From NCBI RefSeq assembly GCF_056712565.1, contig NZ_CM160072.1: 64,000 nt of DNA; one strand, given 5' to 3'. Positions 54 through 15,840 of this stretch are shown piece after piece (the stretch's first letter is position 1; each line of letters begins with the position of its first letter). A program made the translations under genes and the position numbers. The notes beneath the pieces are model-generated. The model ran no database searches. It was not told the DNA's origin and worked only from the letters and a program-made list of their open reading frames with translations.

Positions 54-1190
54 GTGTCTGAAAGAAATTACGACTCTTCTGGCAGAAGAATTATCAAACA
101 GACGCGAAATGATGAAAAAGATTTGGGAGGTAAAGTACACCCTGTGTCATCTTCAAGCATCAAACCGGTAGTAGACTACTACATTAATGGAGATAATCTC
201 TATGAACCATTATCAATTCCCCCTTATGGAGTTAGAACTTATAAAGATACTTTTCAACTAATCATCTATAAAGAAGGAATTAGATATAATAAGCCAGCAA
301 TTTATTTTGGTAAAATTCAATCTAATATACGGCTGGAGATAAATTCGAATAGATATTACCTTACTTTTTTAGCCAGAAAGAAAGGTACCAAACAAGCATA
401 TAAACTTGAAATTGATGCTTCAGAATGGGATGAAAGTAAAAAGAGTTTTTTCTGTAGTGAGTATGAAAAACAAAGAGCAGAAGCAAATAAGTATTATAAT
501 GGACTAAAAGACAAGCGCAAAGCAACCAAATATCTTAATATTTTCTTTTTTGGTTTTCCTGATGAGTGCGATAGTTTTTTATTTAAGACTAGTTGTTTTA
601 AATTGATTTATATCGTTTTCTTAGATGATTTTGATGTGACTTATAATGACAAAAACTACAGCATAGAAAAAGAACAGCTAATTAGAGATGAAATTAACAA
701 AGAACATTTGACAGATCATCAAAATAGAATAAACCTTGCTGAGGTTGCTGAGGTTGCTGAGGTTGCTGAGGTTGCTGAGGTTGCTGAGGTTGCTGAGGTT
801 GCTGAGGTTGCTGAGGTTGCTGAGGTTGCTGAGGTTGCTGAGGTTGCTGAGGTTGCTGAGGTTGCTGAGGTTGCTGAGGTTGCTGAGGTTGCTGAGGTTG
901 CTGAGGTTGCTGAGGTTGCTGAGGTTGCTGAGGTTGCTGAGGTTGCTGAGGTTGCTGAGGTTGCTGAGGTTGCTGAGGTTGCTGAGGTTGCTGAGGTTGC
1001 TGAGGTTGCTGAGGTTGCTGAGGTTGCTGAGGTTGCTGAGGTTGCTGAGGTTGCTGAGGTTGCTGAGGTTGCTGAGGTTGCTGAGGTTGCTGAGGTTGCT
1101 GATTTTGACAAGAGCGAATTTAACCCTTCGGATTCTGATAGGAAAATATGGACTGGGATAAGAAAGCTTATTTCATTCTTTAAAAAATAG
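54..1190 (+). CDS. Hypothetical protein with C-terminal (Ala-Glu-Val)n tandem-repeat tract; reading frame is open to window start so the N-terminus may lie upstream
   Basis: 378-aa ORF in AT-rich DNA; about 40 consecutive AEV tripeptides encoded by perfect 9-bp repeat; no stop in frame between position 3 and 54. Confidence 0.45.
   Translation: MSERNYDSSGRRIIKQTRNDEKDLGGKVHPVSSSSIKPVVDYYINGDNLYEPLSIPPYGVRTYKDTFQLIIYKEGIRYNKPAIYFGKIQSNIRLEINSNRYYLTFLARKKGTKQAYKLEIDASEWDESKKSFFCSEYEKQRAEANKYYNGLKDKRKATKYLNIFFFGFPDECDSFLFKTSCFKLIYIVFLDDFDVTYNDKNYSIEKEQLIRDEINKEHLTDHQNRINLAEVAEVAEVAEVAEVAEVAEVAEVAEVAEVAEVAEVAEVAEVAEVAEVAEVAEVAEVAEVAEVAEVAEVAEVAEVAEVAEVAEVAEVAEVAEVAEVAEVAEVAEVAEVAEVAEVAEVAEVADFDKSEFNPSDSDRKIWTGIRKLISFFKK
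737..1100. repeat. Perfect 9-bp tandem repeat (GCTGAGGTT) x about 40, in frame within ORF 54..1190
   Basis: Directly visible in sequence; generates spurious ORFs in other frames (SATSAT.., LRLLRL..). Confidence 0.95.
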
Positions 1191-1221
1191 ATCTATAGCA
1201 GTCATCATATTGGATTATTGG

Positions 1222-1257
1222 TGAAGTGGTACACTGAATTTGCCCACCTGAACAGAG
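1222..1257 (+). mobile_element. Solo IS3-family (IS911-like) terminal inverted-repeat remnant
   Basis: TGAAGTGGTACACTGAATTTGCCCACCTGAACAGAG matches the IS911 terminus seen at about 9880-9915 (reverse complement) with 2 mismatches; no adjacent transposase. Confidence 0.5.
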
Positions 1258-1321
1258 TTGGTTTTATCAAACTTGTAGTTTACTCAATGACGTAAAAATT
1301 GGTGATGTAAAGGATATAAAA

Positions 1322-3106
1322 ATGTGGTCAGACAAAGAGTCATCAGAAGACTACCTAAATTTTGGTGAAGTATCTCAGTTAGCCGTGGATGTACTTACCA
1401 CGAAAGATATGTTACCAGTATCTATCGGAATTTTTGGAAACTGGGGGGCAGGTAAATCCTCTCTGTTAAAACTGATAGAGCAAAAACTTGAGCAAGACGA
1501 CAAAGATTGGATTGTTATCAATTTTGACTCTTGGCTCTATCAGGGGTACGACGACACCCGTGCCGCACTTCTTGAAGTCATCGCTACAGAATTGACAAAA
1601 GCTGCTGAAGGTAATTCAGCCCTTATATCAAAAACTAAGAGACTCCTTAGTCGAGTTGATGGTTTTAGAGCTATGGGATTACTAGCTGAGGGTACAGCTT
1701 TAATGGCAGGATTACCTACTGGCGGTTTGCTTTCTAGGGGGATTGGTGCATTAAGAAATATCACCGATGGCATCCAGAGCCAGGAAGAGTATGAGGCTTT
1801 AGGCAATATAGCTAAAGAAGGTAAAGAAACTGCTTGTGGTTTGATTAAACCACAAACAAAAAAAAGCCCCCCTCAGCAGATTGATGCCTTTCGTAAGGAA
1901 TATGGGGAAATTCTAGAAGAACTTGGAAAGCCACTCATTGTGGTAATAGATAACCTAGACCGCTGTCTCCCTGCCAATGCTATCCATACACTTGAAGCTA
2001 TCAGGCTATTCCTTTTCTTGACTAATACAGCCTTTATTATTGCAGCAGATGAGGACATGATTCGCTCTTCTGTGGCTGATTACTTCAAAGGGGCATCACA
2101 GCGCCATCAAATAGATTATCTGGATAAGCTAATCCAGGTTCCTATTCGGGTGCCTAAGGCTGGGGTCCGTGAGATCCGTTCGTATCTGTTCATGCTTTAT
2201 GCCATTGAACATGGCTTAGAAGGCGAAAAAATAACTATGCTCCGTGAGGGCTTAGAGAAGGCGTTACAGCAATCCTGGAAAGATGAACCAATCTCACGTC
2301 AGGAGGCCTTAAAAATGACTGGTGAAGCGGATGATAGCAACCTCGCGCTGGCGTTTGCGCGTGCTGACCGTATTGCTCCCATTTTAGCCAACTCTCCAAT
2401 TATTCATGGTAATCCCAGGATCGTTAAACGCTTGTTGAATGTTGTGAAAATGCGATCTCAAATTGCGAAGCGACGAGCAATGCCTTTGGATGAAGCAATT
2501 ATTACTAAGCTAGTAATTTTTGAACGCTGTGTTGGAGTGGATGGCACCGCTGATTTATATCATCTCGTGGATATTGAACAAGGTGTTCCCCAGATACTTA
2601 AACAGCTTGACGATAATGGCGGTCAAATACCTACTGATGCACCAAAGACATGGACTGATAGTCCAACGACTAAATCTTTCATCAGTCAATGGGCCCAACT
2701 TGAACCTCGTCTTGGTGGGATTGACTTAAGGGCCGCCATATATCTGTCCCGAGAAACTATGCCAATAGGTGCATATGTGGTTGGTTTATCGCCATCTGGA
2801 CGGGAAGTACTAAATGCACTAATTGAATTGAAAAACACTAGTTCTCCTACAGCAGAAAACCTTTTGAAAGCACTTCCTCGTGAGGAGCAAATACCTGTAA
2901 TGGAAGGTTTAATTAACCAGTTACGGCAGGTATCAGATTGGGATCGTAAGCCCAGAGGCTTTTCCGGTGCATGTCTGTTGGCCCGCTACTCAACAGATGC
3001 AGCCAGCATATTAATTCGTTATCTACAGGAATTACAGTTGGGGATGAAACGACCAGCGTGGATGACTGCAGCATTAAAAGATGAACAATGGAATAAGGAC
3101 GCTTAA
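1322..3106 (+). CDS. qatA: KAP-family P-loop NTPase (QatA-like)
   Basis: Walker A GNWGAGKS, FDSWLYQGYDD motif after P-loop, Walker B VVIDNLDRC; 594 aa; first gene of 4-gene overlapping operon. Confidence 0.75.
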   Translation: MWSDKESSEDYLNFGEVSQLAVDVLTTKDMLPVSIGIFGNWGAGKSSLLKLIEQKLEQDDKDWIVINFDSWLYQGYDDTRAALLEVIATELTKAAEGNSALISKTKRLLSRVDGFRAMGLLAEGTALMAGLPTGGLLSRGIGALRNITDGIQSQEEYEALGNIAKEGKETACGLIKPQTKKSPPQQIDAFRKEYGEILEELGKPLIVVIDNLDRCLPANAIHTLEAIRLFLFLTNTAFIIAADEDMIRSSVADYFKGASQRHQIDYLDKLIQVPIRVPKAGVREIRSYLFMLYAIEHGLEGEKITMLREGLEKALQQSWKDEPISRQEALKMTGEADDSNLALAFARADRIAPILANSPIIHGNPRIVKRLLNVVKMRSQIAKRRAMPLDEAIITKLVIFERCVGVDGTADLYHLVDIEQGVPQILKQLDDNGGQIPTDAPKTWTDSPTTKSFISQWAQLEPRLGGIDLRAAIYLSRETMPIGAYVVGLSPSGREVLNALIELKNTSSPTAENLLKALPREEQIPVMEGLINQLRQVSDWDRKPRGFSGACLLARYSTDAASILIRYLQELQLGMKRPAWMTAALKDEQWNKDA

Positions 3107-3858
3107 TGGGAACATCACAATCAAGTAAAGGTCCAGGAGGTGGCTCTCCGCTGGTTCCACCATGGGCTGATGATCAGCCACAGCAACCGTTACCCTCGCC
3201 GCAAGAAAGGAGGTTTGCGCCATTTCGAGAATCGTTGGGAAATGCGGTATCAAATGGAAATCGAGCAGATTTCAGAAAAGCCATAGGGCACTACGCGCGA
3301 AAAGCCTCCGGAGGGAGCAGTAACGCTGCTCGGCGATTAGGGAGTGTCACGCAAGCTGGGGCCGAATTATTTGGGGCTTTAGTGGGAATGCCTTCGGCTC
3401 CCGGAGAACCAAGCATCGATTTGGGCAGTTTGGCAGGCCTTCCATGCGAAATAGCAATATCAACTATTGCTCAAGCTTTAACATCACAGGATGGTGACTC
3501 AGAAAAGATCTGTGCGGCCATGAACCATGCTTTAGTGGAGGCTCTTGATGGCGTAGAAATTTTCGATCCTCAAAAAATAACTGATGGTGTGATTGTTGAC
3601 ACAATGATTGGTTATCTAGCGGAAAGTATTTTCCTTCAGATGGTAATGGATTCTAATAGGGCATGGAACAAAGCAGATACACCTTCAAAGGCAATTCATG
3701 CAGAAATTGAACTCCGGGAATTGATTAAAGTTGTTGTTGATAAACATATGGCACCAAAACTTGCCGGTAACATAAGATCGTTCACACGAAACCAAATGGT
3801 AAAAATTGAACGTCAGGCCATTATTGAGGCCTGGCAAGAATGGGAGGCATACCAGTGA
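3106..3858 (+). CDS. qatB: Protein of unknown function (QatB-like position)
   Basis: 250 aa, Gly/Pro/Ser-rich N-terminus, no recognisable catalytic motif; start overlaps qatA stop, end overlaps next gene. Confidence 0.55.
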   Translation: MGTSQSSKGPGGGSPLVPPWADDQPQQPLPSPQERRFAPFRESLGNAVSNGNRADFRKAIGHYARKASGGSSNAARRLGSVTQAGAELFGALVGMPSAPGEPSIDLGSLAGLPCEIAISTIAQALTSQDGDSEKICAAMNHALVEALDGVEIFDPQKITDGVIVDTMIGYLAESIFLQMVMDSNRAWNKADTPSKAIHAEIELRELIKVVVDKHMAPKLAGNIRSFTRNQMVKIERQAIIEAWQEWEAYQ

Positions 3859-5159
3859 CACAATTAGTTTTCCATCATAAACATCACCATTTGCCGCCAG
3901 CAAGTGAGAAAGTGTTACCTGTTCAGCTATATGGATTAAGTGGTCAGAGGCGCGGAGATATATCTGTTATCGGGAATCCTGCGATTGATCGGATCAGACG
4001 TTTGGGAGTACAGCTTCCAGCTAAGGTCATGGATTTTCTGAGTGTTGCATTAGCAGTAACTGCAGCAGATACTTTCGTTCAGCGTGAAAGTTCCGAGGAT
4101 GGTTGGACCCGCCAATTGTCGTTACGACTCCCCCTTCATGAACCATCCAGATGGATTAGTCTAAAGAAAGAACTTGAGAGTGCTTTGCATTTTCTTAGTG
4201 GAGACATCTGGGATTTCGAATTTTGTGACGATGGTTATGCACCGCCAGAGCCTTATAGCCAGCATTCAAGGCATCGTCTGATTAAGCTAAAAGGGCTTGA
4301 CTGTGTCAGCTTATTTTCAGGAGGTCTGGATTCAGCTATTGGTGCAATAGATCTTCTGGCTGCAGGGCGCGCTCCACTTTTGGTTAGTCATGCTTATAAG
4401 GGGGACAAGTCTCGTCAAGATCAGATCGCTGAAAAATTAAGTGGCCAATTTTCGCGCTTTGAGATTAATGCTGACCCACACATTTATCAAGGCGTGACTG
4501 ATATTACGATGCGAACTCGTAGCCTCAATTTTCTTGCCTTTGCGGCCGTAGGTGCTTGTGCCGTACAAGAGATATCTCAACAAGAAAAGATTGATTTGTT
4601 CGTACCTGAAAATGGATTTATCTCATTAAATGCACCACTTACTCCACGGCGGATAGGTTCGCTGAGCACACGAACAACACATCCACATTTTATTACGAGC
4701 ATACAAAAGATCTTTGATGCGCTCGGTATTTCTTGTCAAATAATCAATCCATATCAGTTTAAGACAAAAGGAAAAATGATCTCCGAATGTTCAAATAAGC
4801 AGCTCTTATCTAAAATTGTGGAAAGTACAGTATCCTGCAGTCATTGGAAACGAATGGGGCAGCAATGTGGGGTATGTATACCGTGTATCATTCGACGAGC
4901 ATCACTTCATGCAGGGGGAATTAGTAGAGATGTTGAATATATTTTCCAGTCCTTAGCTAAAGTAATGAATGAAATAGATCGCAGGGACGACCTGATCGCC
5001 CTTAGGATTGCGATCACGCAGAAATCGACTTTGAAAATAGGTACATGGATTGCCAAAAGTGGCCCTTTGCCTACGGCAGAATTTGATAATTTCAAGCAAG
5101 TATTTAAGGATGGCCTAGATGAGGTTGAAAGCTATTTACTGAGTGAGAACATAGTATGA
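3840..5159 (+). CDS. qatC: QueC-like PP-loop ATPase family protein (QatC-like)
   Basis: PP-loop SGGLDS; C-terminal Cys cluster CSHWKRMGQQCGVCIPC resembling QueC zinc site; about 150 aa extra N-terminal region; 439 aa. Confidence 0.7.
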   Translation: MGGIPVTQLVFHHKHHHLPPASEKVLPVQLYGLSGQRRGDISVIGNPAIDRIRRLGVQLPAKVMDFLSVALAVTAADTFVQRESSEDGWTRQLSLRLPLHEPSRWISLKKELESALHFLSGDIWDFEFCDDGYAPPEPYSQHSRHRLIKLKGLDCVSLFSGGLDSAIGAIDLLAAGRAPLLVSHAYKGDKSRQDQIAEKLSGQFSRFEINADPHIYQGVTDITMRTRSLNFLAFAAVGACAVQEISQQEKIDLFVPENGFISLNAPLTPRRIGSLSTRTTHPHFITSIQKIFDALGISCQIINPYQFKTKGKMISECSNKQLLSKIVESTVSCSHWKRMGQQCGVCIPCIIRRASLHAGGISRDVEYIFQSLAKVMNEIDRRDDLIALRIAITQKSTLKIGTWIAKSGPLPTAEFDNFKQVFKDGLDEVESYLLSENIV

Positions 5160-5881
5160 GCATCGATATGCACTGTCATCTAGACTTATATCCTCGGCCA
5201 GACCTCGTGGCTGAAGAAAGTAAGCGTCGAGGGACTTATATTCTGTCGGTGACAACAACACCTAAAGCATGGCATGGTACTTCTTTATTGGCTAAAGAAA
5301 GTCAACGAATCCGAACTGCTCTTGGGCTACATCCTCAAATCGCGCATCAAAGATCGCATGAGTTAGACCTGTTTGATTCATTGCTTTCGGAAACTAAGTA
5401 TGTAGGGGAAATAGGGCTTGATGGTGGACAGGGATTTAAAGAACATTGGGATATTCAATTGAAAGTGTTCCGACACATTCTCAACAGTGTAAATCGGGCT
5501 GGTGGCAAGATTATGACTATCCATAGTCGGGGAAGTGCATCAGCGGTGCTTGATGAGATTGAAAATATCGATGGGGTGGCAATATTGCATTGGTTCACTG
5601 GAACACCTAAGCAGCTTGAAAGGGCAATTGATTTAGGATGCTGGTTCTCAGTGGGGCCTGCTATGCTCGATACAATAAAGGGTAAGGCCTTAGTTTTGAA
5701 AATACCCAAATCACGCATTCTTACAGAAACAGATGGGCCATTTGCTAAGTTTCGTAATGACCCACTAATGCCATGGGATAGTGGGATTGCAGAGAAACAG
5801 TTAGCCGCATTATGGGGGATTAGTCAGATGGAGGTTAATGCTCAGCTAGTTGATAATTTTAAGGTATTATGTACATCATAA
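5156..5881 (+). CDS. qatD: TatD-family metal-dependent hydrolase/nuclease (QatD-like)
   Basis: N-terminal DMHCHLD (HxH), EIGLD, C-terminal TETDGPF motifs typical of TatD; 241 aa; start overlaps qatC stop. Confidence 0.75.
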   Translation: MSIDMHCHLDLYPRPDLVAEESKRRGTYILSVTTTPKAWHGTSLLAKESQRIRTALGLHPQIAHQRSHELDLFDSLLSETKYVGEIGLDGGQGFKEHWDIQLKVFRHILNSVNRAGGKIMTIHSRGSASAVLDEIENIDGVAILHWFTGTPKQLERAIDLGCWFSVGPAMLDTIKGKALVLKIPKSRILTETDGPFAKFRNDPLMPWDSGIAEKQLAALWGISQMEVNAQLVDNFKVLCTS

Positions 5882-6433
5882 GAATGAAAAACTTAGATAT
5901 GCATTTACAGTTCAATTCATTTTTCGTCATCAGTTAATTACACATAAAATTAAAAGTAAGAATATATCTACCCTGTGAATGAGTAAGGCGGATTTATATA
6001 GTTTGTAATTAGTTTAAATGTAAGCAGTTCGTCAGAGTGCGTATTCCGCTCTATTCGATCACGGATTGGCCGTTATGACCCGATCTCGATGGAAGTTATT
6101 GGGTGATCCCCTTCCATGAAAATATGCACCGAAGCTCCCGCAGAGGTTTCCGTGGGCGAAGGCATGATTCTGTCCGAGAGCCGGATGTGTTAGAAGCGCA
6201 TGTCCGCTTCGATGAGCGGGGTGTGGAAACAGGATTTATGGTCAGGACAGTAAGGCACCGCCAATCGAAAGAGGCGGCAACAGATATGCCTGACCTGTAA
6301 AATTACCGCGCCACATCTTGACTCTACCCGTTTTCCAAGCGCCCCCCCTTATAGAACGTACACTGGATGGTGATACCGGCTATACATCGCATATTTGACA
6401 GTCAGCTTGCTGAATTTTTCATTGGCTGCAGCA

Positions 6434-7009
6434 TCAGGGCGTTTTCCAGATGACAGCTATAGTAAAAATGATCGCCAGACTGGCGAGAAAGCAGAGCGAA
6501 AGCGGGATTTTGTCCTTCAGTGTCAGGTTCAGCTCTTCTTCAACCCATGCTTTTTCAAATTCACAGTAAAATTTATAATGTGCGTACCAGTTACTTCCGA
6601 AGATCTGTTTGCTGATGACCGTGCCGTAAAACCGGGACATGATAGCGTCGATGGATTGTTGTGTACGCTGATAGTCAAAGTTTGCATCGCTTTTTACGTT
6701 GCGGTAGATGACTTCAAGTTCATTAAAAATTTTGGTCTGCTCAATCCCCGCACTTTCATAACTCTGCTTTTCCGAGTCATAAAACTGAATGTACATTGTA
6801 GCAACACCAAATATAATTAATATCGCGGAAATGACGTTTGTGGCCAGCTCAGGAATAAAAAGGGCGAACACACCGACAGCAAGAGAAATAAAGCTAATCC
6901 AACCGGATGCCTTACAAATCAGATCATAGGTGGCAAAGTTTTTCTTAGCGCCAAATCCAACGTTATAACCATGTCGGGCGATTAATTTCAGCATCTCTGA
7001 TTGCGTCAT
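6434..7009 (-). CDS. Small membrane protein, SLATT-like putative effector partnered with nucleotidyltransferase
   Basis: 191 aa; two central hydrophobic helices (WISFISLAVGVFALFIPELATNVISAILIIFGVATMYIQ) plus C-terminal hydrophobic segment; 7-nt gap after upstream gene. Confidence 0.5.
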   Translation of the reverse strand: MTQSEMLKLIARHGYNVGFGAKKNFATYDLICKASGWISFISLAVGVFALFIPELATNVISAILIIFGVATMYIQFYDSEKQSYESAGIEQTKIFNELEVIYRNVKSDANFDYQRTQQSIDAIMSRFYGTVISKQIFGSNWYAHYKFYCEFEKAWVEEELNLTLKDKIPLSLCFLASLAIIFTIAVIWKTP

Positions 7010-7016
7010 AAAAACC

Positions 7017-8345
7017 TCAGCTTATGGGAACTTCAATCTGGGCCCGGGCAACCACAACCTCATTTTTTATCACATAGCATTCTACCATGTGATCTCCGCG
7101 GAAGTCGGTAGTTTCTTTCTTCGTACAGTAGCCGCCGTCCGAAACGATTTGTCCCCGGATCATATTTCTTCTGCGTGCTTCGTCACCCACGTTCAGTACC
7201 TTCCACATAACGGTGTAGGGTTCCTCTGCCTCCATTTCTGTCAAGTCTGCCCGGAAAAGGAGAGATTTTCGAGCGGAGAGGCGGAATCTTCTGATAAGCA
7301 TCTCCCTCAGGCTTCTGGGAGGGAAACCATCCTGGGTTACGGTACAGTCAAGGTTGAGTGAGTACCTGATATCCACCGGATATTTATCCTCTATAAACTC
7401 TTCGGTATCGGTCCAGGGAACAGCATCTGCCGCATGCGATTCCAGACCAAGACGGGCTTCCATAATACCCACTTTACGTCTGGGGAAGGCTCGTCCGAAC
7501 ACTTTGCGCCAGCGGTCATTTTCACTGGCAGCCCCCTCAGCGTCTAAGGCATCACAACATAATTCATACGCGTGTTTCGCTGCCCGGCCAAACCAGGGAG
7601 ATTTAACACGTACATGCTGATTACTGCCTAACGCGAGATACCTTTCCTTTCTCTCCTCATTTGACAGATATTCAAAAAAGTCTCTGGCGAGGGCTCCCAG
7701 GCTGCCATTTCCGGTATTGTCATAATCTGATGTTGATGAAAGAAAGCGATACGCTAGTGTGTCTATCAGTAAGCCACCCATATTGACGCCATGCAGGTTC
7801 TTCCAGGCTCTGATCATTTTACACAGCTTGCGCAGATTATTGGATTTATCTCGCGAAAATGCGGTCATGGCCGCCTTTTCGTGAAGAGGTTTTGTAATGC
7901 GCCATGCTCCTCCATTATAGCTTTCAGGGAATTTAAAGCTGTCATCATCCTGTCTGAATACAGGTTGAACCTCGACATAAAAGTTTTTAAAGATGATCTG
8001 AACAACCAGTCTGTCCTTTTTCACAGTCTGGTCAGGATATTCTTCCGCCAGAATGTTTCTGACATCTGTAAGCAATGCAGACTGACCATTATCCTTACGG
8101 TTATAATATTCATACTGATTGGGGGGCATAATATAAAGCATATCCAGATCGGATATGCCTTTTATTGCGGTATGTCTGCCTACTGACCCCACTTTCAAGC
8201 GGTTTGCTACCCGGGAACTCGTTCCTCTGAACGCAAGATTTAATGACTTGGTTATTTTTCGATAGTGATAGCTGATCTTTTTTGCCTGTTTGAGGTCAAG
8301 ATTCAAATTTTCAAGAAATTCGCTGAACAATTCCCTGTGGCTCAT
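7017..8345 (-). CDS. SMODS/CD-NTase-like nucleotidyltransferase with about 120-aa C-terminal extension
   Basis: Pol-beta-type NTase signature GSVGRHTAIKGISDLD (GS-x10-[S]DhD) and downstream acidic strand YVEVQP; 442 aa. Confidence 0.55.
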   Translation of the reverse strand: MSHRELFSEFLENLNLDLKQAKKISYHYRKITKSLNLAFRGTSSRVANRLKVGSVGRHTAIKGISDLDMLYIMPPNQYEYYNRKDNGQSALLTDVRNILAEEYPDQTVKKDRLVVQIIFKNFYVEVQPVFRQDDDSFKFPESYNGGAWRITKPLHEKAAMTAFSRDKSNNLRKLCKMIRAWKNLHGVNMGGLLIDTLAYRFLSSTSDYDNTGNGSLGALARDFFEYLSNEERKERYLALGSNQHVRVKSPWFGRAAKHAYELCCDALDAEGAASENDRWRKVFGRAFPRRKVGIMEARLGLESHAADAVPWTDTEEFIEDKYPVDIRYSLNLDCTVTQDGFPPRSLREMLIRRFRLSARKSLLFRADLTEMEAEEPYTVMWKVLNVGDEARRRNMIRGQIVSDGGYCTKKETTDFRGDHMVECYVIKNEVVVARAQIEVPIS

Positions 8346-8448
8346 GGTGTTTCCTTTGGCATGTGAAACATTAGCTTACATTATCATTACACCTTATAAA
8401 AACCAAGATCTTGGGAGGTGAGCGTTCTGCATGGCTTTATGACTTAAA

Positions 8449-8666
8449 CGTAAGCGTTAACGGAGTGCCGTATTGACGCTTATTTATTGGTGAGTACTAC
8501 GTTCCATGGCAGGAGTTCGTCAACTCGGTTGGAAGGCCATTCCGGCAGTACGCTCAGGATATGGCTCAGATACGCTTCCGGATCGATATCGTTCAGTCGG
8601 CAGGTGCCGATCAGCCCGTACAACAGTGCTCCTCGCTCGCCGCCGTGATCGCTGCCGAAGAACATA
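8449..8666 (-). pseudogene. IS66-family transposase 3' fragment with element terminus (GTAAGCG...)
   Basis: 61-aa ORF ending ...LYGLIGTCRLNDIDPEAYLSHILSVLPEWPSNRVDELLPWN resembling IS66 TnpC C-terminus; GTAAGCG terminal motif at about 8449; abutted by IS911. Confidence 0.45.
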
Positions 8667-8685
8667 ATGAATCGCCACGGATAAT

Positions 8686-9498
8686 CTAGACACTTCCGAG
8701 CCGTTGATAATACTGGTTTTCATATTCTGTCGGTGACATCTGTTCGCTAGAACCATGCCGACGCTTACTGTTATAAAACATTTCGATGTAATCAAAAATA
8801 TCACTGCGGGCTTCTTCCCGCATTCCGTAGATCTTTTTCTTTATCCGTTCACGTTTCAACAACTGGAAAAAACTTTCTGCAACCGCATTATCATGGCAGT
8901 TACCGCGACGGCTCATGCTACCCTCCAGGCCGTGTGATTTCAGGAACGACTGCCACTCATGGCTTGTGTACTGACTGCCCTGATCCGAATGAACCAGCAC
9001 CTGTTTTTCGGGATTACGCCGCCATACAGCCATCAGCAGTGCGTTCAGGACAATGTCCTTTGTCATCCGGGATTGCATGGACCAGCCGATAATTTTGCGT
9101 GAGAACAGATCAACAACAACGGCAAGATACAGCCAGCCTTCGTGGGTCCTGATGTAGGTTATGTCCGTTACCCAACGCTCATCAGGAGCATCCGGATTGA
9201 ACTGTCGCTGGAGCCTGTTGGGTGACATGATACTGGCCTCGCCTTTACGTGCCCGCGGGCTTCGGTATCCGACCTGAGCCTTTATTCCGACACGTTTCAT
9301 CAGTCTCCAGACTCTGTTTACTCCGCACTGTTGCCCGCTGTCACGCAGATCCAGATGGATTTTGCGATAACCATAGACGCATCCCGATTCCAGCCAGAAC
9401 TGTTTAATCTGTCCTGTCAGTCTCAGGTCTGCCTGATGGCGTTGTGAATGCGGCTGCTGAAGCCAGGCGTAAAAACCACTGGGATGAACATCCAGCAC
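8686..9498 (-). CDS. IS911 transposase OrfB (DDE integrase domain)
   Basis: 270-aa ORF with IS3-family catalytic region (HSDQGSQYTS.., CHDNAVAESFF). Confidence 0.8.
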   Translation of the reverse strand: MLDVHPSGFYAWLQQPHSQRHQADLRLTGQIKQFWLESGCVYGYRKIHLDLRDSGQQCGVNRVWRLMKRVGIKAQVGYRSPRARKGEASIMSPNRLQRQFNPDAPDERWVTDITYIRTHEGWLYLAVVVDLFSRKIIGWSMQSRMTKDIVLNALLMAVWRRNPEKQVLVHSDQGSQYTSHEWQSFLKSHGLEGSMSRRGNCHDNAVAESFFQLLKRERIKKKIYGMREEARSDIFDYIEMFYNSKRRHGSSEQMSPTEYENQYYQRLGSV

Positions 9499-9554
9499 CC
9501 GACAGAGCAGGCGAACAGGCCAGCAACAGGTGTTGTCACGGATAAAGGCGTACC

Positions 9555-9842
9555 TCAGTCGGACAGCTTTGCGAAGTACGCCGCCTTTTTTAATATTTCA
9601 TTCTCCATTTCAATGCGTTGTAGCTTTTTCCTCAGCTTACGTATTTCGATTTGTTCTGGTGTTATCGGAGAGGCTTTTGGTGTTTTGCCCTGACGCTCAT
9701 CACGCAGTTGTTTGACCCATCTTGTCATTGTGGAAAGGCCAACATCCATAGCTTTGGCGGCATCTGCCACCGTGTATTTCTGGTCAACAACCAGTTGAGC
9801 GGATTCGCGTTTAAACTCTGCGCTAAAATTTCTTTTTTTCAT
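9555..9842 (-). CDS. IS911 OrfA (HTH transposition protein)
   Basis: [49 protein letters not shown].. ; start trimmed to internal Met. Confidence 0.75.
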
Positions 9843-9915
9843 TGGAGCACCTGTGTTGTTCTGAGGTGAGCATATCACCTCTGTTCAGGTGGCCAAATTC
9901 AGTGTGCCACTTCAA

Positions 9916-10289
9916 GCCGGGAGCGGCGTCAGCCAGTCTCCCTTTACCCGCGCTTTTTCGGAAAGCCCACCCCAATGTTTTTCTCCTACACCCCAGCCGG
10001 TCAGCAGGACCTTATCCCCGGTCTGATATTCAGGATGTGAGCTGGCGGACACTGTACCGGCAAAATCAATGCCTGGCACCATTGGAAAGTGCCGGACGAT
10101 AGGCCCGCGGCCCGTAATAGCCAGTGCGTCTTTGTAGTTGATAGATGAACAGTCGACATTGACCTCCACATCCCCCTGTGGCAGCTCGCTTTCAGCGATT
10201 TCAGCAATTTGGGCACTGTGGCGACCATACATCTTACTGATTAATAAGGATTTAAACATTTTTTTCTCGTCTTTCTGGTTTGATGTCAT
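9916..10289 (-). pseudogene. N-terminal fragment of YhdH/AcuI-like NADPH-dependent quinone oxidoreductase, truncated by IS911
   Basis: 125-aa ORF with [34 protein letters not shown] motifs of MDR superfamily; ends at the IS911 terminus. Confidence 0.6.
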
Positions 10290-10859
10290 TGAGCTATAAA
10301 GTAGTCAATAAACAATATTGACCGATCGTCTAATAATCAACGCTGATATCCCAGTGTTTGTCAGAAAACAAGAATTGCTTTTCTTTTCATCAGGTTAAAT
10401 CTATCTTTTTTGATTTATATCAAACCAGATTCGGTCTTCAATTATATAGGCATCAATGTTAGCGGTCCTACAAGATACGCAGTCGATGCTTCAGGGCGTA
10501 CTGATGAAATAAAACAAGTAGGCTGAGATTAGTTGGTCTGCTCATCGCTCACAGCGGACCTTCAGCTTCGTTAGCCAAGCGCTGACATAGTTACCGATGT
10601 AGCGTGTTAATCTGTCGGGAGCATAGCCGAAATCACTTAACCCATTAGACTTCACCTAAAACTGCAAAAATTACCGTCTTTGTCACACTCACCGAGTTTA
10701 ATCAAACTAACACTGTACATAGTGCGAACAAGAGCCAACCAGAAAGACTGTTCAGCATCAACAGTGAAGTTTTTCCCCGCTACTTCCCCGCAATTCTTCC
10801 GCAGTTTTCCCACTAGAGAGTTCGACACATCCCTTGCATACCAACGCTTTGATTCAAAT

Positions 10860-11627
10860 CTCGGTAGTGCATCCAATTAGTAGAATATGTGTTTTTCGAT
10901 AAATGCTCCGATCACTTTTTCGTGGATCTCAACTGAGCGTGAGAAGCAGATTGTTTACGAGCCAACCGCTTAATGTGGGTGCGTAGCGTCAGATTATTAC
11001 GCTCAATGCGTTGGGTGAATATTTTGCCGGTCAGATGCTTATTCTTCGGCACCACCCGGCCATAGCTGTCCCAGTCATCGCTGGTGAGCATGCCGATGTT
11101 GAAGGGTGTAAGCAGTGCCAGTAGCTCCCGGCACGTTTGATCGGTTCGGGGACCAAAAGTGTAGGCCAGTACACCGCCTGTTTTGGTGTTGTACGCGTAC
11201 CAGAGCCAGTGTAGCCGGGCTTTACTGCCAACGTAGCTCCATTGCTCATCAAGCTCGCAGATAAGCGCCACATCAGCATGGGCAACAGGCGAAGAAGTTA
11301 TTTGCGTTGGTGCGAGTTTTTTAAAGTCCGGATGATGGTGTTAATACCAATTTTCAGTGTCCTGGCGGTATCGCGAACCCCGGCACCATTAAAGGCCATT
11401 TCAGTGATCATCTCTTTCATACCCGGCTTACGTGCTTGATAAGTATAAGTGAGCTGAAACACACGGTGGCAGTCACGGCAGCGAAATCTGTCACGGCCTT
11501 TAGGGTTCTGACCATGGCGGTAAACCTGAGCTGACTGACAACGGGGACAATGAATATTAACGCTGGCCATGAGATAACCTCAAAAGCCCGTATTATACAT
11601 CAGATTCAACCAATTAGAGGCATCACC
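10860..11627 (-). mobile_element. Divergent IS1-family insertion sequence
   Basis: InsA-like (11298..11570) and InsB-like (10912..11271) ORFs; ends resemble IS1 IRs (GGTAGTGCATCCAA... / ...GGCATCACC); InsA only about half identical to the canonical IS1 InsA at 17483. Confidence 0.65.
11298..11570 (-). CDS. insA: IS1-family InsA-like protein (divergent isoform)
   Basis: 90 aa, Zn-finger CPRCQS..CRDCHR and HTH resembling IS1 InsA. Confidence 0.7.
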   Translation of the reverse strand: MASVNIHCPRCQSAQVYRHGQNPKGRDRFRCRDCHRVFQLTYTYQARKPGMKEMITEMAFNGAGVRDTARTLKIGINTIIRTLKNSHQRK

Positions 11628-11822
11628 CTTTCCTACATTCGTAGGACTTTGATTACATATAGCAAGGGTTAATTCTTATATACATAGAATAAATTAGGAA
11701 TATAATGAATTTTATCGTGACGACCTTATTTATAATTAATTTATATTGTCAGAGAAATTAGTGTCCACAACATGAAGCCTTACAAAGAGATTCTATGATT
11801 TAAAAAAAATAAGAGCCAGCTT

Positions 11823-13292
11823 ATGCATATCGATTCGACTGAAAAAAATAATAAACAAAAGTTGGGCTTGCTTGCGCTAACATCCATTGTCGTGAGCTCG
11901 ATGATCGGCAGCGGCGTTGACGGACTCCCCCAGAATATGGCGGAGAATTCTGCCGTGGGCCCGGTGGCGATAGCATGGATAGTCTGTGGTATCGGCATGT
12001 TTTTCATCTCCAGAACTTTTATCGTGCTGTCAAACATTAGACCTGATCTCCAGTCAGGAGTTTATATGTATGCCCGGGAAGGGTTCGGCCGATTTACGGC
12101 ATTTAACGTCGCCTGGGGCTACTGGCTGATGACTATATTCAGCAACGTCGCCTTTGCCATTATGGTGATGGATACGCTGAATTATTTCTTACCAGGTGAT
12201 TTCAAGGGAGGGAACAATATTCCTTCCGTTATCGGTGCCTCTTTGCTGATATGGGGATTCAACTTTTTAGTCCTCTCCGGTACCCGCATTGCCGGGTCGA
12301 TTAACATCGTCGGCACGCTGGCCAAACTGATCCCGCTGGTGGCCTTTATTATTATTCTCATGCTGTTTATGAAGTACACCACGTTCGCAGATAACGTCTG
12401 GGGGCACAGCGCGAGTAAGGCCAGTCAGGACCTAGGCTCTATTTTCTCACAGGTAACTTCACCGCTTAGCGTGGCACTCTGGAGCTTCATCGGCGTTGAG
12501 GGGGCTGTCGCTCTTTCCGGTCGGGCCAAAAATAAACGCGACGTGGGTAAAGCCACATTCATTGGCTTCGTTGTATCACTGATTATCTGTCTGCTGGTCT
12601 CCATCCTGCCGTTTGGCGTGCTGACTCAACATGAGCTCAGCGCAATTCCAACCCCATCCACCGCCGGTATTCTGAAGATTGTTGTCGGTGAATGGGGGAA
12701 GATTATGATTATCTTGGGGGTGCTGATTTCGGTGCTTACCAGCTGGCTGGCGTGGACCATCATCTGCGCCGAACTGCCTATGGTGGCCGCGCAGAACGGC
12801 ACATTCCCGAAACCGTTCAGCAAAAAAAATGTGAAGGGTTCGGCCTCGGTTTCGCTTTATATAAGCAGTGCGTTTATGCAAATCGTCGTACTTCTGGTCT
12901 ACTTTTCTAACGATGCCTGGCTTGCAATGCTGGCTATCTCTACCCTGACCGTTTTACCTGCGTATTTAATGACCACGGCATACCTGTTTAAACTATGTAT
13001 TAGCGGCGAGTATGCCAGCTATACCACGAATCACAGCCGCAGCGCCGCGCTGGTCAGCAGTATTATCGGCTTTGTATTCTGCCTGTTTATGTTCTACGCC
13101 AGTGAAATCAAATATCTGGCGATGGTTCCGGTGCTGCTTACGCTGGGCGTGCCCCTGTTTATCTGGGCAAGAAAAAAAGACGATCGCGCAGATAAAATAT
13201 TTACGCTACGCGAACTGGCATTTTTTATTTTACTGCTGGTCCTCGACATCATTGTTTTTATTCTACTGCATTATAAAACGATACATTTTTAG
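11823..13292 (+). CDS. APC-superfamily basic amino acid antiporter, ArcD/YdgI-like (paralog 1)
   Basis: 489 aa polytopic; N-terminal KLGLLALTSIVVSSMIGSGV..LPQNMA and GVYMYAREGFG, FIGVEGAV..SGRAKNKRDVGKAT motifs as in arginine:ornithine-type antiporters. Confidence 0.7.
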   Translation: MHIDSTEKNNKQKLGLLALTSIVVSSMIGSGVDGLPQNMAENSAVGPVAIAWIVCGIGMFFISRTFIVLSNIRPDLQSGVYMYAREGFGRFTAFNVAWGYWLMTIFSNVAFAIMVMDTLNYFLPGDFKGGNNIPSVIGASLLIWGFNFLVLSGTRIAGSINIVGTLAKLIPLVAFIIILMLFMKYTTFADNVWGHSASKASQDLGSIFSQVTSPLSVALWSFIGVEGAVALSGRAKNKRDVGKATFIGFVVSLIICLLVSILPFGVLTQHELSAIPTPSTAGILKIVVGEWGKIMIILGVLISVLTSWLAWTIICAELPMVAAQNGTFPKPFSKKNVKGSASVSLYISSAFMQIVVLLVYFSNDAWLAMLAISTLTVLPAYLMTTAYLFKLCISGEYASYTTNHSRSAALVSSIIGFVFCLFMFYASEIKYLAMVPVLLTLGVPLFIWARKKDDRADKIFTLRELAFFILLLVLDIIVFILLHYKTIHF

Positions 13293-13396
13293 TCCAGATT
13301 AATTCACAGCAAGTTAAGGTGACGATAATGTCTGTTTCTTGGGCATGACATCCTCACAGTTAAATACTATCTGAACAGTAACCGTGGAGACACCTA

Positions 13397-15766
13397 ATGA
13401 AATTTAACCACAATCTTTTATTTATTTCCTCACAATATCTTGATGGCGACAACCCTTCGCAGCAGGTACTGGAAGAGCTTCAAACCGAACTCGCGGAACG
13501 CGGTTTTAAAATTCATATCACGCACCAGATCTCTGATGGATTAAAAATCATCGAAAAAAGCCCCCAATACAGCGGGATTGGTTTTTACTGGGAGCCAGAC
13601 AATCCGACCTTTGCAGAAGAGCTACAGCACTTTATCAGCATATTCCGCAAAAGAAATGCCACGACGCCGCTGATAATTTTCTCAGAACAGAATATTACCG
13701 ATCGTATCCCACTCGACGTCTTAAAAGAGGTCAGCGAATATGTTTATCTGTTCTCTGAATCCGCAGCCTTCACTGCCAATCGACTGTACTCCTTAGTCCA
13801 CCGCTATGCGGATAAGCTTCTTCCTCCCTACTTTAAAACCCTTAAGGACTTTACCGAGGACGGTGACTATTACTGGGACTGCCCGGGGCATATGGGGGGA
13901 ATGGCCTATCTGAAACATCCTGTTGGCATTGAGTTCATTAACTTCTTTGGCGAAAACATGATGCGCGCTGATATTGGCGTGGCTACCGCGGAGATGGGGG
14001 ATTATCTGATCCACGCCGGACCGCCTAAAAAATCGGAAGAAATTGCGGCCCGACTGTTTGGCTCTGATTGGACCTTCTACGGTGTTTCCGGCTCATCGGG
14101 GTCGAACCGTATTGTGGCCCAGGCTGCGGTTGGCGCAGATGAAATTGCCATTATTGACCGAAATTGCCACAAGTCACTTAATCATGGCCTGACCTTGTCT
14201 CAGGCAAGGCCGGTTTACCTGAAACCTACCCGCAACGCGTGGGGGCTGATTGGGCCTATCCCGACCGGGCGCCTGAAGAAGGCCAGTATTGATGCGCTGG
14301 TGGCAAACAGCCGACTGGCATCTGGTGCGGTCAGCCAGTCCCCGTCCTACGCCGTGGTAACCAACTGCACCTATGATGGCTTCTGTTATAACGTGAACGA
14401 TGTAGTCAGACACCTGGGTGAAAGCGCACCGCGCATCCATTTTGATGAAGCATGGTATGCCTATGCGCGTTTCCATCCGCTATACCAGAGTCGCTATGCA
14501 ATGGACGCGGAGGAAACGCCAAATCGTCCAACCCTATTCGCCGTACAGTCCACCCATAAAATGCTGCCCTCACTCTCCATGGCCTCAATGATTCATGTGA
14601 AGAAAAGCGATCGCGCGCCGCTTAATTTCGATGACTTTAACGATGCCTTTATGATGCACGGCACGACCTCACCCTACTACCCGATCATTGCATCAATTGA
14701 TGTGGCAGTAAGCATGATGGAGGGTGAATCCGGTTATTCGCTTGTGCAGGAGTCAATTGAAGAAGCGATTGCCTTCCGTAAAGCCGTGGTCAGCGTCAAG
14801 CGCCAGCTCCAGGAGCAGGAAGGTGGTGACGCCTGGTTCTTCGATGTGCTTCAGCCAACCGAAGTGCAGGACAGCGATTCTGGGCAGCGATACAGTTTTG
14901 AAGAGGCACCCGTATCGCTGCTGAGCCACAGCGCCGACTGCTGGTCGCTGCGCTCCGGTGAGCGCTGGCACGGTTTTGCCGATGATGATCTGGTCGAAAC
15001 CAACAGTATGCTCGATCCAGTAAAAGTGACCCTGACTTGTCCAGGGATCGGCCCGAAGGGAGAATACCAGAAAAACGGTATTCCGGGATATTTGCTGACC
15101 CGTTTTCTCGATGACCGTCGCATTGAAATTGCCCGTACTGGTGACTACACCGTGCTGATCCTGTTCTCCGTCGGCATCACCAAAGGCAAATGGGGAACTC
15201 TGATTGAAAGCCTGCTGGCCTTTAAAAAGCATTACGACAATGACGATCTGGCCACAGATGCTATCCCGTCGCTGAAAGCGCATTCTCCACACTACGACAC
15301 GCTAACCCTCAAGGAGCTATGTCAGATAATGCATGAAAAAATGGATGAGCTGGAGCTGATGTCGCATATCAACGACGCGGTAAACACCGATCCGGAACCA
15401 GTTATGACCCCGGCAGAAGCCTATCAGAAAGTCGTACGCTACAAAACCGAGCATATCCGGCTGGATGATTTTAGCGGCAGAATTGCCGCCAGCATGCTCG
15501 TCCCATATCCCCCAGGCATTCCTGTACTGATGCCGGGCGAACGGATGCCGCAAGGTAACAAGGGCATTATTGGCTATCTGCGCGCCCTGCAGGAATTCGA
15601 TAAGCAATTCCCAGGTTTTGAACATGAGATCCAGGGCGTTAACGTCGATGAAAACGGGGACTTCTGGGTCAGAGCGATTGTGGAAGAAGAACGCGATGGG
15701 CAGTCGCTACCCGGCCACATAACCTTTAAACGCCAGGTCTCTGGTATTAAAAAGGGCCGCCAGTAG
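13397..15766 (+). CDS. PLP-dependent Orn/Lys/Arg decarboxylase, AdiA-like (biodegradative arginine decarboxylase family)
   Basis: 789 aa; DRNCHKS, VTNCTYDGFCYN, HFDEAWYAYARF, QSTHKMLP (PLP lysine), GKWGTLIESLLAFKKHYD closely parallel recalled AdiA motifs, less so CadA/SpeF. Confidence 0.8.
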   Translation: MKFNHNLLFISSQYLDGDNPSQQVLEELQTELAERGFKIHITHQISDGLKIIEKSPQYSGIGFYWEPDNPTFAEELQHFISIFRKRNATTPLIIFSEQNITDRIPLDVLKEVSEYVYLFSESAAFTANRLYSLVHRYADKLLPPYFKTLKDFTEDGDYYWDCPGHMGGMAYLKHPVGIEFINFFGENMMRADIGVATAEMGDYLIHAGPPKKSEEIAARLFGSDWTFYGVSGSSGSNRIVAQAAVGADEIAIIDRNCHKSLNHGLTLSQARPVYLKPTRNAWGLIGPIPTGRLKKASIDALVANSRLASGAVSQSPSYAVVTNCTYDGFCYNVNDVVRHLGESAPRIHFDEAWYAYARFHPLYQSRYAMDAEETPNRPTLFAVQSTHKMLPSLSMASMIHVKKSDRAPLNFDDFNDAFMMHGTTSPYYPIIASIDVAVSMMEGESGYSLVQESIEEAIAFRKAVVSVKRQLQEQEGGDAWFFDVLQPTEVQDSDSGQRYSFEEAPVSLLSHSADCWSLRSGERWHGFADDDLVETNSMLDPVKVTLTCPGIGPKGEYQKNGIPGYLLTRFLDDRRIEIARTGDYTVLILFSVGITKGKWGTLIESLLAFKKHYDNDDLATDAIPSLKAHSPHYDTLTLKELCQIMHEKMDELELMSHINDAVNTDPEPVMTPAEAYQKVVRYKTEHIRLDDFSGRIAASMLVPYPPGIPVLMPGERMPQGNKGIIGYLRALQEFDKQFPGFEHEIQGVNVDENGDFWVRAIVEEERDGQSLPGHITFKRQVSGIKKGRQ

Positions 15767-15840
15767 GCGGGGGAAAGAACAATACCGTCGGATCGCCTGC
15801 AATCCGACGGCAATATTATAGAATAGCTGAGGGAAACGTT

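Follow-up and report, generated by a model that had tools for sequence, protein, structure and literature searches.

A solo IS911-type inverted repeat and a chimeric IS3-family element around Qat and CBASS genes in an Escherichia coli pheV island: probably a fossil and an independent scar rather than the ends of a composite transposon

Introduction

Defence genes that lie between two matching insertion sequence (IS) ends raise the question of whether the ends have moved the genes or happen to lie beside them. The question is posed by the window analysed here, a 64,000-nucleotide stretch of contig NZ_CM160072.1 (NCBI RefSeq assembly GCF_056712565.1), in which a 36-bp sequence upstream of a Qat operon recurs in inverted orientation at the end of an IS located downstream of a CBASS module. 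A preliminary description of the sequence had offered two readings, namely capture or mobilisation of the defence genes as a composite unit, or an older IS911-like copy that had lost its body. IS911 belongs to the IS3 family, is 1250 bp long, transposes by a copy-out/paste-in route and produces OrfA and OrfAB by -1 frameshifting, and its target-site duplications are of 3 bp, sometimes 4 bp.

The window represents the pheV (tRNA-Phe) island of E. coli. The integration site spans 22699-24237 on the minus strand, where a tyrosine integrase adjoins the tRNA-Phe gene pheV (24162-24237 according to ARAGORN) at one border of the island, beside yqgA; the integrase and yqgA are annotated by PGAP in the identical SF-468 record.

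Results

The repeat at 1222-1257

The sequence at 1222-1257 of the plus strand, TGAAGTGGTACACTGAATTTGCCCACCTGAACAGAG, was identical at 34 of 36 positions to the reverse complement of 9879-9914, confirming the reported match with two mismatches, which fall at IR positions 9 and 22. The partner, earlier placed at 9871-9915, occupies 9879-9914, the IS itself ending at 9914. These were the only two sites in the whole window with three or fewer mismatches to the IR, and none of 100 shuffles gave a match at that level (chance expectation 0). The IR of IS911 is 36 bp long (PMC2909936), and the solo copy is a complete 36-bp IR. Compared with both ends of the downstream IS, it resembles the left (IRL) and not the right (IRR) repeat, with its outer tip at 1222 and the former IS interior having faced right, toward qatA. 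Similarity starts at the IS tip, and past IR positions 36-39 no IS similarity was detected on either strand, so that the relic stops at the IR boundary. The variant carried by the solo copy is T9/C22, and the sequence following it is TTGGTTTTATC.

The solo IR is flanked by a 4-bp direct repeat resembling a target-site duplication, TTGG, read directly at 1218-1221 and 1258-1261, which was unchanged in 10 of 10 further assemblies. Target-site duplications of 4 bp fall within the range of this IS family, and the chance of a coincidental TTGG pair is approximately 1/256. Intergenic DNA unrelated to any IS extends from the right TTGG to the ATG of qatA at 1322. To the left lies a gene for a hypothetical protein (54-1190, plus strand) whose perfect (AEV)n repeat is built from a 9-bp unit present in 40.8 copies at 736-1102; the copy number differs among strains, and the protein ranges from 328 to 529 aa in other genomes. 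In 238 of 250 genomes it is this gene that precedes the solo IR. In Z142-6 and two metagenome contigs the left flank is instead a truncated cdiA, fused to the IR precisely at its tip, and this version keeps the same inner junction between IR and TTGG. Since two different left flanks meet the same base, the tip of the solo IR is a true junction.

In CU42ET-1 a full 1249-bp IS911-group element, followed by a 72-bp qatA remnant, is located 2 bp from the solo-IR site in the same orientation. It was considered as the intact version of the solo-IR insertion and rejected on account of the 2-bp offset, its TGTAG tips and its C9/G22 variant. The position of its tip, 2 bp outside the solo IR, is the geometry expected for strand transfer beside an IR.

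These results support reading 1222-1257 as the remnant of an IS911-group copy once located between the repeat-protein gene and qatA, the body of which was subsequently lost. The second of the two earlier readings is thereby upheld by the exact 36-bp IR, the TTGG pair, the tip as a true junction and the nearby IS911-group element of CU42ET-1, offset by 2 bp. That AT-rich intergenic DNA has come to resemble an IS3-family end by accident is so improbable as to be negligible: the short length of the match is the one point in its favour, whereas the identity and the shuffle control, the alignment running from the exact IS tip to the IR boundary, the use of the tip as a rearrangement breakpoint in other genomes and the neighbouring full IS in CU42ET-1 all stand against it.

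The downstream element is a chimera

The element at 8668-9914 is 1247 bp long and full length, with orfA at 9555-9842, the orfB frame at 8686-9570, an A6G frameshift site (AAAAAAG at approximately 9585-9591) and a programmed frameshift annotated by PGAP, the organisation and approximate length of 1250 bp of IS911. The preliminary description had called it a complete IS911; the completeness stands, but only the first 332 bp are IS911, the remainder belonging to another IS3-family element. The IS911-derived 5' third (9583-9914, minus strand) comprises the IRL at 9879-9914, identical to that of IS911, and orfA up to the A6G motif, and element positions 1-332 are 99.4% identical in nucleotide sequence to a PGAP-labelled IS911 (L014). 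The 3' two-thirds (8668-9582, minus strand) comprise orfB and the terminal repeat TGAATCGCCACGG... of an IS3-family element here termed ISx; these 915 bp, element positions 331-1247, are 97-99.6% identical to ISx copies elsewhere. The deduced proteins divide in the same manner, residues 1-86 of OrfA being 98.8% identical to IS911 and the OrfB frame 98.3% identical to ISx versus 35.7% to IS911. Thus one end is an IS911 36-bp IR (TGAAGTGG...) while the other reads TGAATCGCCACGGATAATC... versus TGAAGTGGTCAACAAAAACTGG in IS911, and identity to IS911 at the isoform level, set at approximately 90% or more of nucleotides as in ISfinder practice, is confined to positions 1-332 and does not extend over the full length.

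The flanks of the element differ (TAA at 8665-8667 versus AGC at 9915-9917), with no target-site duplication. At 9914|9915 the IS911 IRL meets the N-terminal fragment (9915-10289, minus strand; NCBIfam acrylyl_AcuI 1-114 of 325) of an acuI/yhdH-like gene for acrylyl-CoA reductase, the truncation coinciding with the IS tip. Full-length copies of the chimera were found in 197 genomes, approximately equal to the 191 complete E. coli genomes with the junction between IS66 fragment and IS described below, and occur essentially at this locus only. Judged from these identities, the element joins a 5' fragment of IS911 to the 3' portion of another IS3-family element, forming a single-locus chimera. 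In other genomes, IS30 ends abut the IS911 half and the ISx half at nearly the same position.

Content between the repeats

The Qat system is a four-gene operon at 1322-5881, all genes on the plus strand and named as such by PGAP, in which PADLOC models fit QatA (1322-3106; model positions 1-593 of 593), QatB (3106-3858; 1-248 of 248), QatC (3840-5159; 7-445 of 453) and QatD (5156-5881; 6-248 of 250). Homology to other Qat loci covers 1308-5876 only, with 84-85% nucleotide identity to the Qat loci of ET734 and Xenorhabdus. The second module, on the minus strand, consists of a 2TM/SLATT effector (6434-7009; PDLC00695 1-191 of 195) and a CD-NTase/SMODS cyclase (7017-8345; PDLC00796 1-430 of 432); a cyclase and a transmembrane effector at 6434-8345 with neither Cap2 nor Cap3 correspond to type I CBASS. 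Apart from ORF 6103-6300, the ORFs of 5882-8449 gave no further defence matches with PADLOC. The module shared with plasmid p30EVA2-3 spans 6343-8449 at 96.6% identity, the homology stopping exactly at 8449.

The interval had been described as exactly the Qat operon and the SMODS/SLATT pair. Both are present at full length, but IS debris accompanies them. The spacer between Qat and CBASS contains a 35-bp IS-end-like relic (6037-6071, plus strand) that recurs with 100% identity at hundreds of unrelated loci on chromosomes and plasmids, and in L020 the same sequence adjoins istB of the IS21-like element ISSso4; it probably represents an IS21-like terminal repeat and would be another IS relic at a module seam. 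A 218-bp terminal fragment of an IS66-family element (8450-8667, minus strand; NCBIfam transpos_IS66 positions 348-385 of 387) carries the end motif GTAAGCG at 8450 and encodes the C-terminus of the transposase at 8480-8665; the chimeric IS interrupts it at 8667, and in genomes without that IS it runs 258 bp further. As had been stated, no housekeeping genes lie between the solo IR and the downstream IRL.

Distribution of the parts and the composite-transposon reading

The solo IR is identical in all of the approximately 250 complete E. coli genomes carrying this Qat block, and its exact variant is confined to this locus among 5,426 E. coli genomes. No match to the exact variant was found in 100,044 species representatives or in viral contigs, and none with the IS911 interior attached in metagenome contigs. 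The block at 1221-8667, comprising IR, Qat, CBASS and IS66 fragment, is present with 99.8% identity in approximately 50 genomes that have no downstream IS, where identity breaks exactly at 8667|8668 and CBASS is followed by the longer IS66 fragment, the integrase and tRNA-Phe. The junction of IS66 fragment and IS occurs in 191 complete E. coli genomes. That of IS and acuI fragment occurs in 365, versus approximately 250 with Qat, and it is found without the Qat block in approximately 170 genomes (for example L012 and L013). Elsewhere Qat occurs without CBASS (ET734 and a Xenorhabdus plasmid) and CBASS without Qat (p30EVA2-3), in each case without these repeats; as read from these loci, the adjacency of Qat and CBASS is not obligatory.

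These data bear on the proposal of an 8.7-kb unit, bounded by the solo IRL on one side and the IRL at 9914 on the other, that captured Qat and CBASS and has moved them together, or still does so, by means of the internal IS transposase. The geometry is suitable, in that the two IRLs are inverted with their tips outward and enclose only defence genes and IS debris. The chimeric transposase has the DNA-binding N-terminus of IS911, and because its own other end is not of the IS911 type, 1222 and 9914 are the sole nearby cognate ends. The pair consists, however, of one full element and one 36-bp IRL that differs from the IRL of that element at two positions. Target-site duplications at its flanks and its presence or absence as a whole in related genomes had been suggested as checks. 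Its flanks are TGG (TTGG) at 1222 and AGC at 9914, with no direct repeat; the 1221-8667 block exists without the IS and the junction of IS and acuI without the block; all 191 chimera-carrying genomes share their flanks; and no second context was found in E. coli genomes, plasmids, species representatives, metagenomes or viral contigs, the whole unit being limited to a single context. Qat and CBASS at separate loci without these IRs had been named beforehand as grounds for abandoning the proposal. The composite-transposon history is largely refuted by these results and is very improbable.

Discussion

A fossil IRL and an independent scar in a mosaic island

The results are best explained by a fossil 36-bp IRL and an independent chimeric scar, which probably came to lie in the same mosaic pheV island without having been the ends of a composite transposon. 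From the anatomy, junctions and distribution documented above, the following order of events may be reconstructed. An IS911-group element would have inserted in the intergenic region of approximately 95 bp between the repeat-protein gene and qatA, duplicating TTGG, and would then have lost everything from IS position 37 through the right tip, either through a deletion started by transposase, with the right tip as its anchor, or through illegitimate deletion. We know of no deterministic pathway that leaves exactly one IR. No empty site, in which the repeat-protein gene is followed directly by qatA with a single TTGG, was found among the E. coli genomes compared, so that the order of insertion and then loss is drawn from the 4-bp repeat. 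The fossil would have been fixed before the Qat-CBASS block spread among E. coli lineages. In many islands lacking Qat, an IS911 5' fragment would already have adjoined the truncated acuI-like gene, and the chimera may mark the seam at which, in B2-type lineages, the block of IR, Qat, CBASS and IS66 fragment was joined to another island module consisting of the acuI fragment, IS1 and a decarboxylase/antiporter cluster. The defence genes would then spread as part of the pheV island and through homologous exchange among its variants, the inverted IRL pair being a by-product of island mosaicism.

The cdiA flank and the uniformity of the block could alternatively be attributed to a one-ended or trans-mobilised unit that an IS911-group transposase delivered into pheV islands, the solo IRL being the functional left end of the unit. 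Two distinct left flanks meeting exactly at the IR tip and a block 99.8% identical across distant lineages would fit such a unit, as would a second, IR-targeted mode of insertion reported for IS911 (cited in PMC9333248). Both flank types, however, occupy one chromosomal locus and share their right side as far as tRNA-Phe, which indicates that the block did not move and only its left neighbour changed. In addition, these genomes have no partner IR on the right, and the TTGG duplication encloses the 36-bp IR, not the block. Delivery of this kind is therefore considered unlikely. Since the cdiA flank shares the inner junction between IR and TTGG, the tip was either reused after the loss of the body or joined by recombination at very short homology. 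A junction precise to the tip is not predicted by a purely inert fossil.

A further and still less probable possibility is that the fossil IRL continues to be recognised by IS911-group transposases and, as a cis-acting site, initiates rearrangements at the islet boundary, with the 8.7-kb Qat-CBASS segment constituting a latent IRL-IRL transposon. An active IRL would account both for cdiA being fused exactly to the tip in some strains and for the full IS911-group element of CU42ET-1 having its tip 2 bp outside the fossil. In B2 strains the chimera encodes an IS911-type DNA-binding domain, for which its own IRL and the fossil are the only cognate ends.

Taking the fossil and the independent scar as the preferred reading, the main value of the analysis is a correction, in that defence genes framed by matching IS ends can mimic a transposon; comparison of approximately 250 genomes revealed that the two ends have separate histories and that the locus is an ordinary IS-scarred mosaic island. 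It furnishes natural examples of an IS footprint in which a single complete inverted repeat survives between the intact copies of its duplication, of a chimeric IS3-family element called intact by annotation pipelines, and of IS relics at each seam between defence modules. If transposases do still use the fossil repeat, which is speculative, relics of this kind would destabilise the surroundings of defence systems in a way so far overlooked.

Comparison with known systems

The locus agrees with pheV islands and E. coli defence hotspots in its integrase beside tRNA-Phe and yqgA and in its mixture of defence modules, metabolic modules and many IS fragments, and differs from them in nothing essential. 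A survey of E. coli pan-genome hotspots includes Qat and CBASS among its mapped systems, and its main text makes no mention of yqgA, pheV or this IR (PMC10121019). The six defence proteins fit the PADLOC models of QatABCD and type I CBASS end to end, with no difference detected. With IS911 the locus shares the two IS911-type IRLs, the solo relic and 9879-9914, and the first 332 bp of the chimera; the chimera departs from IS911 in its other end (TGAATCGCC... versus TGAAGTGGTCAAC...), in an OrfB from a different IS3-family lineage, in the lack of a 3-bp duplication and in being found at full length only here.

Decaying compound transposons such as Tn6330 (ISApl1-mcr-1-ISApl1) lose the flanking IS on one or both sides, with short scars left behind (10.1101/2023.06.07.543989). 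The present locus is similar in having cargo beside a short IS scar and a deletion about as long as an IS, one end of which coincides with the IS boundary. There is no evidence that an IS ever carried the Qat-CBASS cargo and, unlike in Tn6330, the duplication encloses the scar itself, indicating a simple insertion beside pre-existing cargo; moreover, Tn6330-type scars are of a few bases and the scar here is a whole IR. The deletions of IS3-family elements ascribed to the IS-excision enhancer (IEE) or to sloppy strand transfer (10.1101/2023.06.07.543989) are comparable in the loss of the IS body with one endpoint exactly at the tip, and the cdiA junction resembles a tip-anchored adjacent deletion. 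The products described for IEE are precise excisions or larger deletions, whereas at this locus the complete IR has been retained.

Identity of the repeat upstream of qatA

Alignment of the 36-bp sequence at 1222-1257 (plus strand; TGAAGTGGTACACTGAATTTGCCCACCTGAACAGAG) to the IS identified it as an IRL-type end with a likeness that stops at the IR boundary, and the flanks at 1258-1321 and 1190-1221 gave no alignment to the IS on either strand. Since the IR of IS911 has a defined length of 36 bp (PMC2909936), this solo repeat, referred to here as the fossil, is one complete IR. The fossil was identical at 34 of 36 positions to the reverse complement of 9879-9914 (TGAAGTGGCACACTGAATTTGGCCACCTGAACAGAG), the two mismatches falling at IR positions 9 and 22. 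With up to three mismatches allowed, the 64-kb window contained no site besides these two, and 100 dinucleotide shuffles gave no match at this threshold. The near-identical IS911 end with two mismatches reported in the preliminary description is upheld by these values and is not a product of chance; the partner, placed there at 9871-9915, was slightly off, the true position being 9879-9914 with the element ending at 9914.

The fossil is flanked on each side by TTGG (1218-1221 and 1258-1261), as it is in ten further assemblies. The pair is what a simple insertion into ...GGATTA[TTGG]TTTTATC... would leave, coincidence being expected at about 1/256. An empty site, with a single TTGG and no IR, was not found among 20 further assemblies with the two QatA variants, the 131-bp gap containing the fossil being present in all 20. 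An older IS911-like copy that lost its body, one of the origins suggested initially, is well supported by the complete IR, the TTGG pair and the end of likeness at the IR boundary.

No surviving IS with the T9/C22 IRL of the fossil was found in species representatives, metagenome contigs or viral contigs. The exact T9/C22 variant of the IR gave 0 matches in 100,044 species representatives, this IRL joined to an IS911 interior was absent from metagenome contigs, and the variant was not found in viral contigs. Within E. coli the variant is confined to this locus, and the Qat upstream sequence on the fossil side (1258-1292) had no matches in other species. A role for the fossil as qatA promoter was without support, as a consensus scan of 1100-1400 revealed no sigma-70-like site or terminator.

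Content of the islet

Both qatABCD (1322-5881) and a pair encoding a CD-NTase and a 2TM/SLATT effector (6434-8345, minus strand) were identified by PADLOC with end-to-end matches. The claim that exactly Qat and the SMODS/SLATT pair lie between the two ends was correct in that both are present, but an IS66-family end fragment of 218 bp (8450-8667) and a 35-bp relic (6037-6071) are also included. The 35-bp sequence, located in the spacer between Qat and CBASS, has 100% identical counterparts at hundreds of unrelated loci on E. coli chromosomes and plasmids. In plasmid p1_ST866 it adjoins istB of the IS21-like ISSso4, and it is therefore probably another IS-end relic, a solo terminal repeat of the IS21 family that marks the Qat/CBASS seam; the second end of the IS21-like element was not in the stretch of that plasmid examined. 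A group II intron fragment was considered for the spacer at 5882-6433 and rejected, with no Rfam match at E <= 0.01.

To the left of the fossil, the ORF at 54-1190 encodes a hypothetical protein with an (AEV)n tract, a perfect 9-bp tandem repeat of 40.8 copies at 736-1102. This hypervariable VNTR, which adjoins T6SS gene remnants (VasL/ImpA), differs widely in copy number between strains, the proteins ranging from 328 to 529 aa. The repeat protein was unconvincing as a conserved Qat neighbour, the only match being a weak one (28% over 72 aa) to the gene upstream of the Qat system of E. coli ET734.

The downstream element is a chimera

The element at 8668-9914 (minus strand, 1247 bp), with orfA, orfB and an AAAAAAG frameshift site, had been taken for a complete IS911. 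Only positions 1-332 (IRL and orfA) matched a PGAP-labelled IS911, at 99.4% nucleotide identity, and the rest was unmatched. Residues 1-86 of OrfA were 98.8% identical to IS911, whereas the OrfB frame was 35.7% identical to IS911 versus 98.3% to an unnamed IS3-family element, here ISx, with an OrfA of its own that is only 38.5% identical to that of the chimera. The second terminal repeat (TGAATCGCCACGG...) is likewise of the ISx type, the IS911 counterpart being TGAAGTGGTCAAC..., and the IS911/ISx junction lies in frame at the frameshift motif. The two halves were found apart thousands of times in 5,426 complete E. coli genomes; the full-length chimera was present in only 197, essentially the 191 with the same junction of IS66 fragment and IS. 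Apparent independent plasmid copies were rejected, the two-piece matches being neighbouring separate elements.

An IS30 end abuts IS911 at approximately position 336 in two Qat-less islands (L012 and L013) and abuts ISx fragments at approximately position 331 in two ISx loci (L015 and L016). The abutment and junction sites are at 9583-9590 of the window, ∼6765-6772 of L012, ∼280-1500 of L015 and ∼1450-1500 of L016. Both positions, in IS911 and in ISx, coincide with the A6G frameshift region and suggest that IS30 has a hot spot at this point. Considering that IS30 ends abut both halves and that the IS911 of K-12 is itself split by IS30A (PMC9333248), IS30-related events may be the source of the fusion.

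Island setting and distribution of the block

The first 10.4 kb of the window match E. coli SF-468 and numerous further ExPEC/B2 chromosomes at 100% identity, and belong to a genomic island at tRNA-Phe (24162-24237) beside yqgA, with the integrase just inside. Other lineages (ETEC, STEC, O157:H16, NCTC9100 and others), with ∼50 genomes in all, have the same block without the chimera; in these, a longer IS66 fragment comes after CBASS, and then further IS debris, the integrase and tRNA-Phe. Identity of these genomes to the window is 99.8% over 1221-8667, halts exactly at 8667/8668 and resumes only at the integrase, at 95%. Conversely, the 9914/9915 junction between the IS911 IRL and a truncated acuI/yhdH-like gene is present in 365 genomes versus ∼250 with Qat, and Qat-less islands carry an IS911 fragment followed by an IS30 end. 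The occurrence of the block without the chimera and of the acuI junction without Qat indicates that the chimera is the seam of two island modules with different histories.

The composite unit proposed earlier failed three of its defining tests, with the 1.2-9.9 kb block not kept as a unit in these relatives and the acuI junction present also in genomes without Qat. The flanks of the chimera are TAA and AGC, hence there is no target duplication. Nor did the linkage of Qat and the nucleotidyltransferase module hold: Qat without CBASS and without the IR occurs in different surroundings in E. coli ET734 and on a Xenorhabdus IncC plasmid (84-85% identical, homology over 1308-5876 only), and the CBASS module occurs alone on plasmid p30EVA2-3 (96.6%, spanning 6343-8449).

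The integrase/tRNA-Phe end (22705-24285) is 95% identical between island types versus 99.8% for the Qat-CBASS block, in comparison with Z142-6 and EC529. This difference indicates that diverged pheV islands have recently exchanged the defence block.

Further into the window, genes for two basic amino-acid/polyamine antiporters and an Orn/Lys/Arg decarboxylase are clustered at 11823-17340, bounded by a frameshifted IS1 (∼10877-11570) on one side and an intact one (17428-18195) on the other. The intact IS1 has a perfect inverted copy of 768 bp, also intact, at 20158-20925, and a fragment of the IS3 family lies with a MarR gene between these two. The IS1-bounded region within 10877-20925 could be an IS1 composite or an invertible segment.

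Rearrangements at the fossil and decay of the islet

A truncated cdiA forms the left flank in Z142-6, in one further complete genome and in two metagenome contigs. Its fusion point is exactly at the first T of the fossil IR, while the inner IR/TTGG junction and all sequence rightward to tRNA-Phe are unchanged. The cdiA fragment of Z142-6 (8606-9001 of that locus), an orphan with a VENN pre-toxin domain, belongs to a minority island variant with an arc (arginine deiminase) operon. Because the cdiA sequences of the two contigs diverge beyond the final ∼35 bp next to the fusion, the junction is not a single occurrence. TTGG is missing from the cdiA side and this form therefore looks derived; the fusion looks like a tip-anchored rearrangement that would have followed loss of the IS body.

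A synthetic query joining the left flank to the IS911 5' end matched one genome, CU42ET-1, which carries a full 1249-bp IS911-group element (91% identical to IS911; tips TGTAGTGG) in the same orientation, its left tip lying outside the fossil-tip position by 2 bp. After the element come an IS630 fragment, a qatA remnant of 72 bp (1735-1806 of the window), a piece of IS110 and an inverted piece of IS66, and the islet (9099-11426 of that locus) is an almost completely eroded version. The element is a different insertion from the parent of the fossil and shows that IS911-group ends are drawn to this site. An IR-targeted insertion mode is attributed to IS911 (Loot et al. 2002, as cited in PMC9333248). 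The cdiA junction and the CU42ET-1 element are not fully explained by an inert fossil; that the fossil IR is a live cis-site, which would form a latent IRL-IRL unit with the IRL of the chimera in B2 strains, is nonetheless regarded as very improbable.

Defence genes were inactivated in independent events in three strains. EC529 lacks 1385-3188, resulting in a qatA-qatB fusion (∼9190 of its locus); in MINF_1A (6042-7236 of its locus) ISKpn26 replaces qatA, qatB and part of qatC directly after the fossil; and GYB01 (NZ_CP125731.1) has IS1414 inside the SLATT effector gene.

Origin of the fossil

Returning to an old copy with a lost body, an IS911-group element would have entered the gap between the repeat-protein gene and qatA, which the TTGG pair suggests were already adjacent at that time. 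The element would later have lost position 37 to the right tip by a deletion with one endpoint at the transposase cleavage site of the right tip and the other at the inner boundary of the IRL bound by transposase. No described deletion pathway is known to leave exactly one IR, and for this reason the proposed mechanism of body loss is given low confidence. Tip-anchored transposase-dependent deletions of the IS3 family ("sloppy" strand transfer, enhanced by IEE) and IS-length microhomology deletions during copy-out of IS629 and ISApl1 have been described (10.1101/2023.06.07.543989). A scan for a partner IR with IS911-IRL, IS911-IRR and ISx-type ends (at least 23/36 matches) covered the window and the chimera-less loci. 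Beyond the two ends of the chimera, the only other site in the window was 19348, a terminus of an unrelated IS3 fragment; the chimera-less loci of Z142-6 and EC529 contained none at this threshold.

Overall, this is an ordinary modular pheV island scarred by IS elements, with relics of these at almost all of its module boundaries: the IS911 IRL, the probable IS21-type end, the IS66 end and the IS911/ISx chimera. It is a fresh example of kinds already known and adds little that is new.
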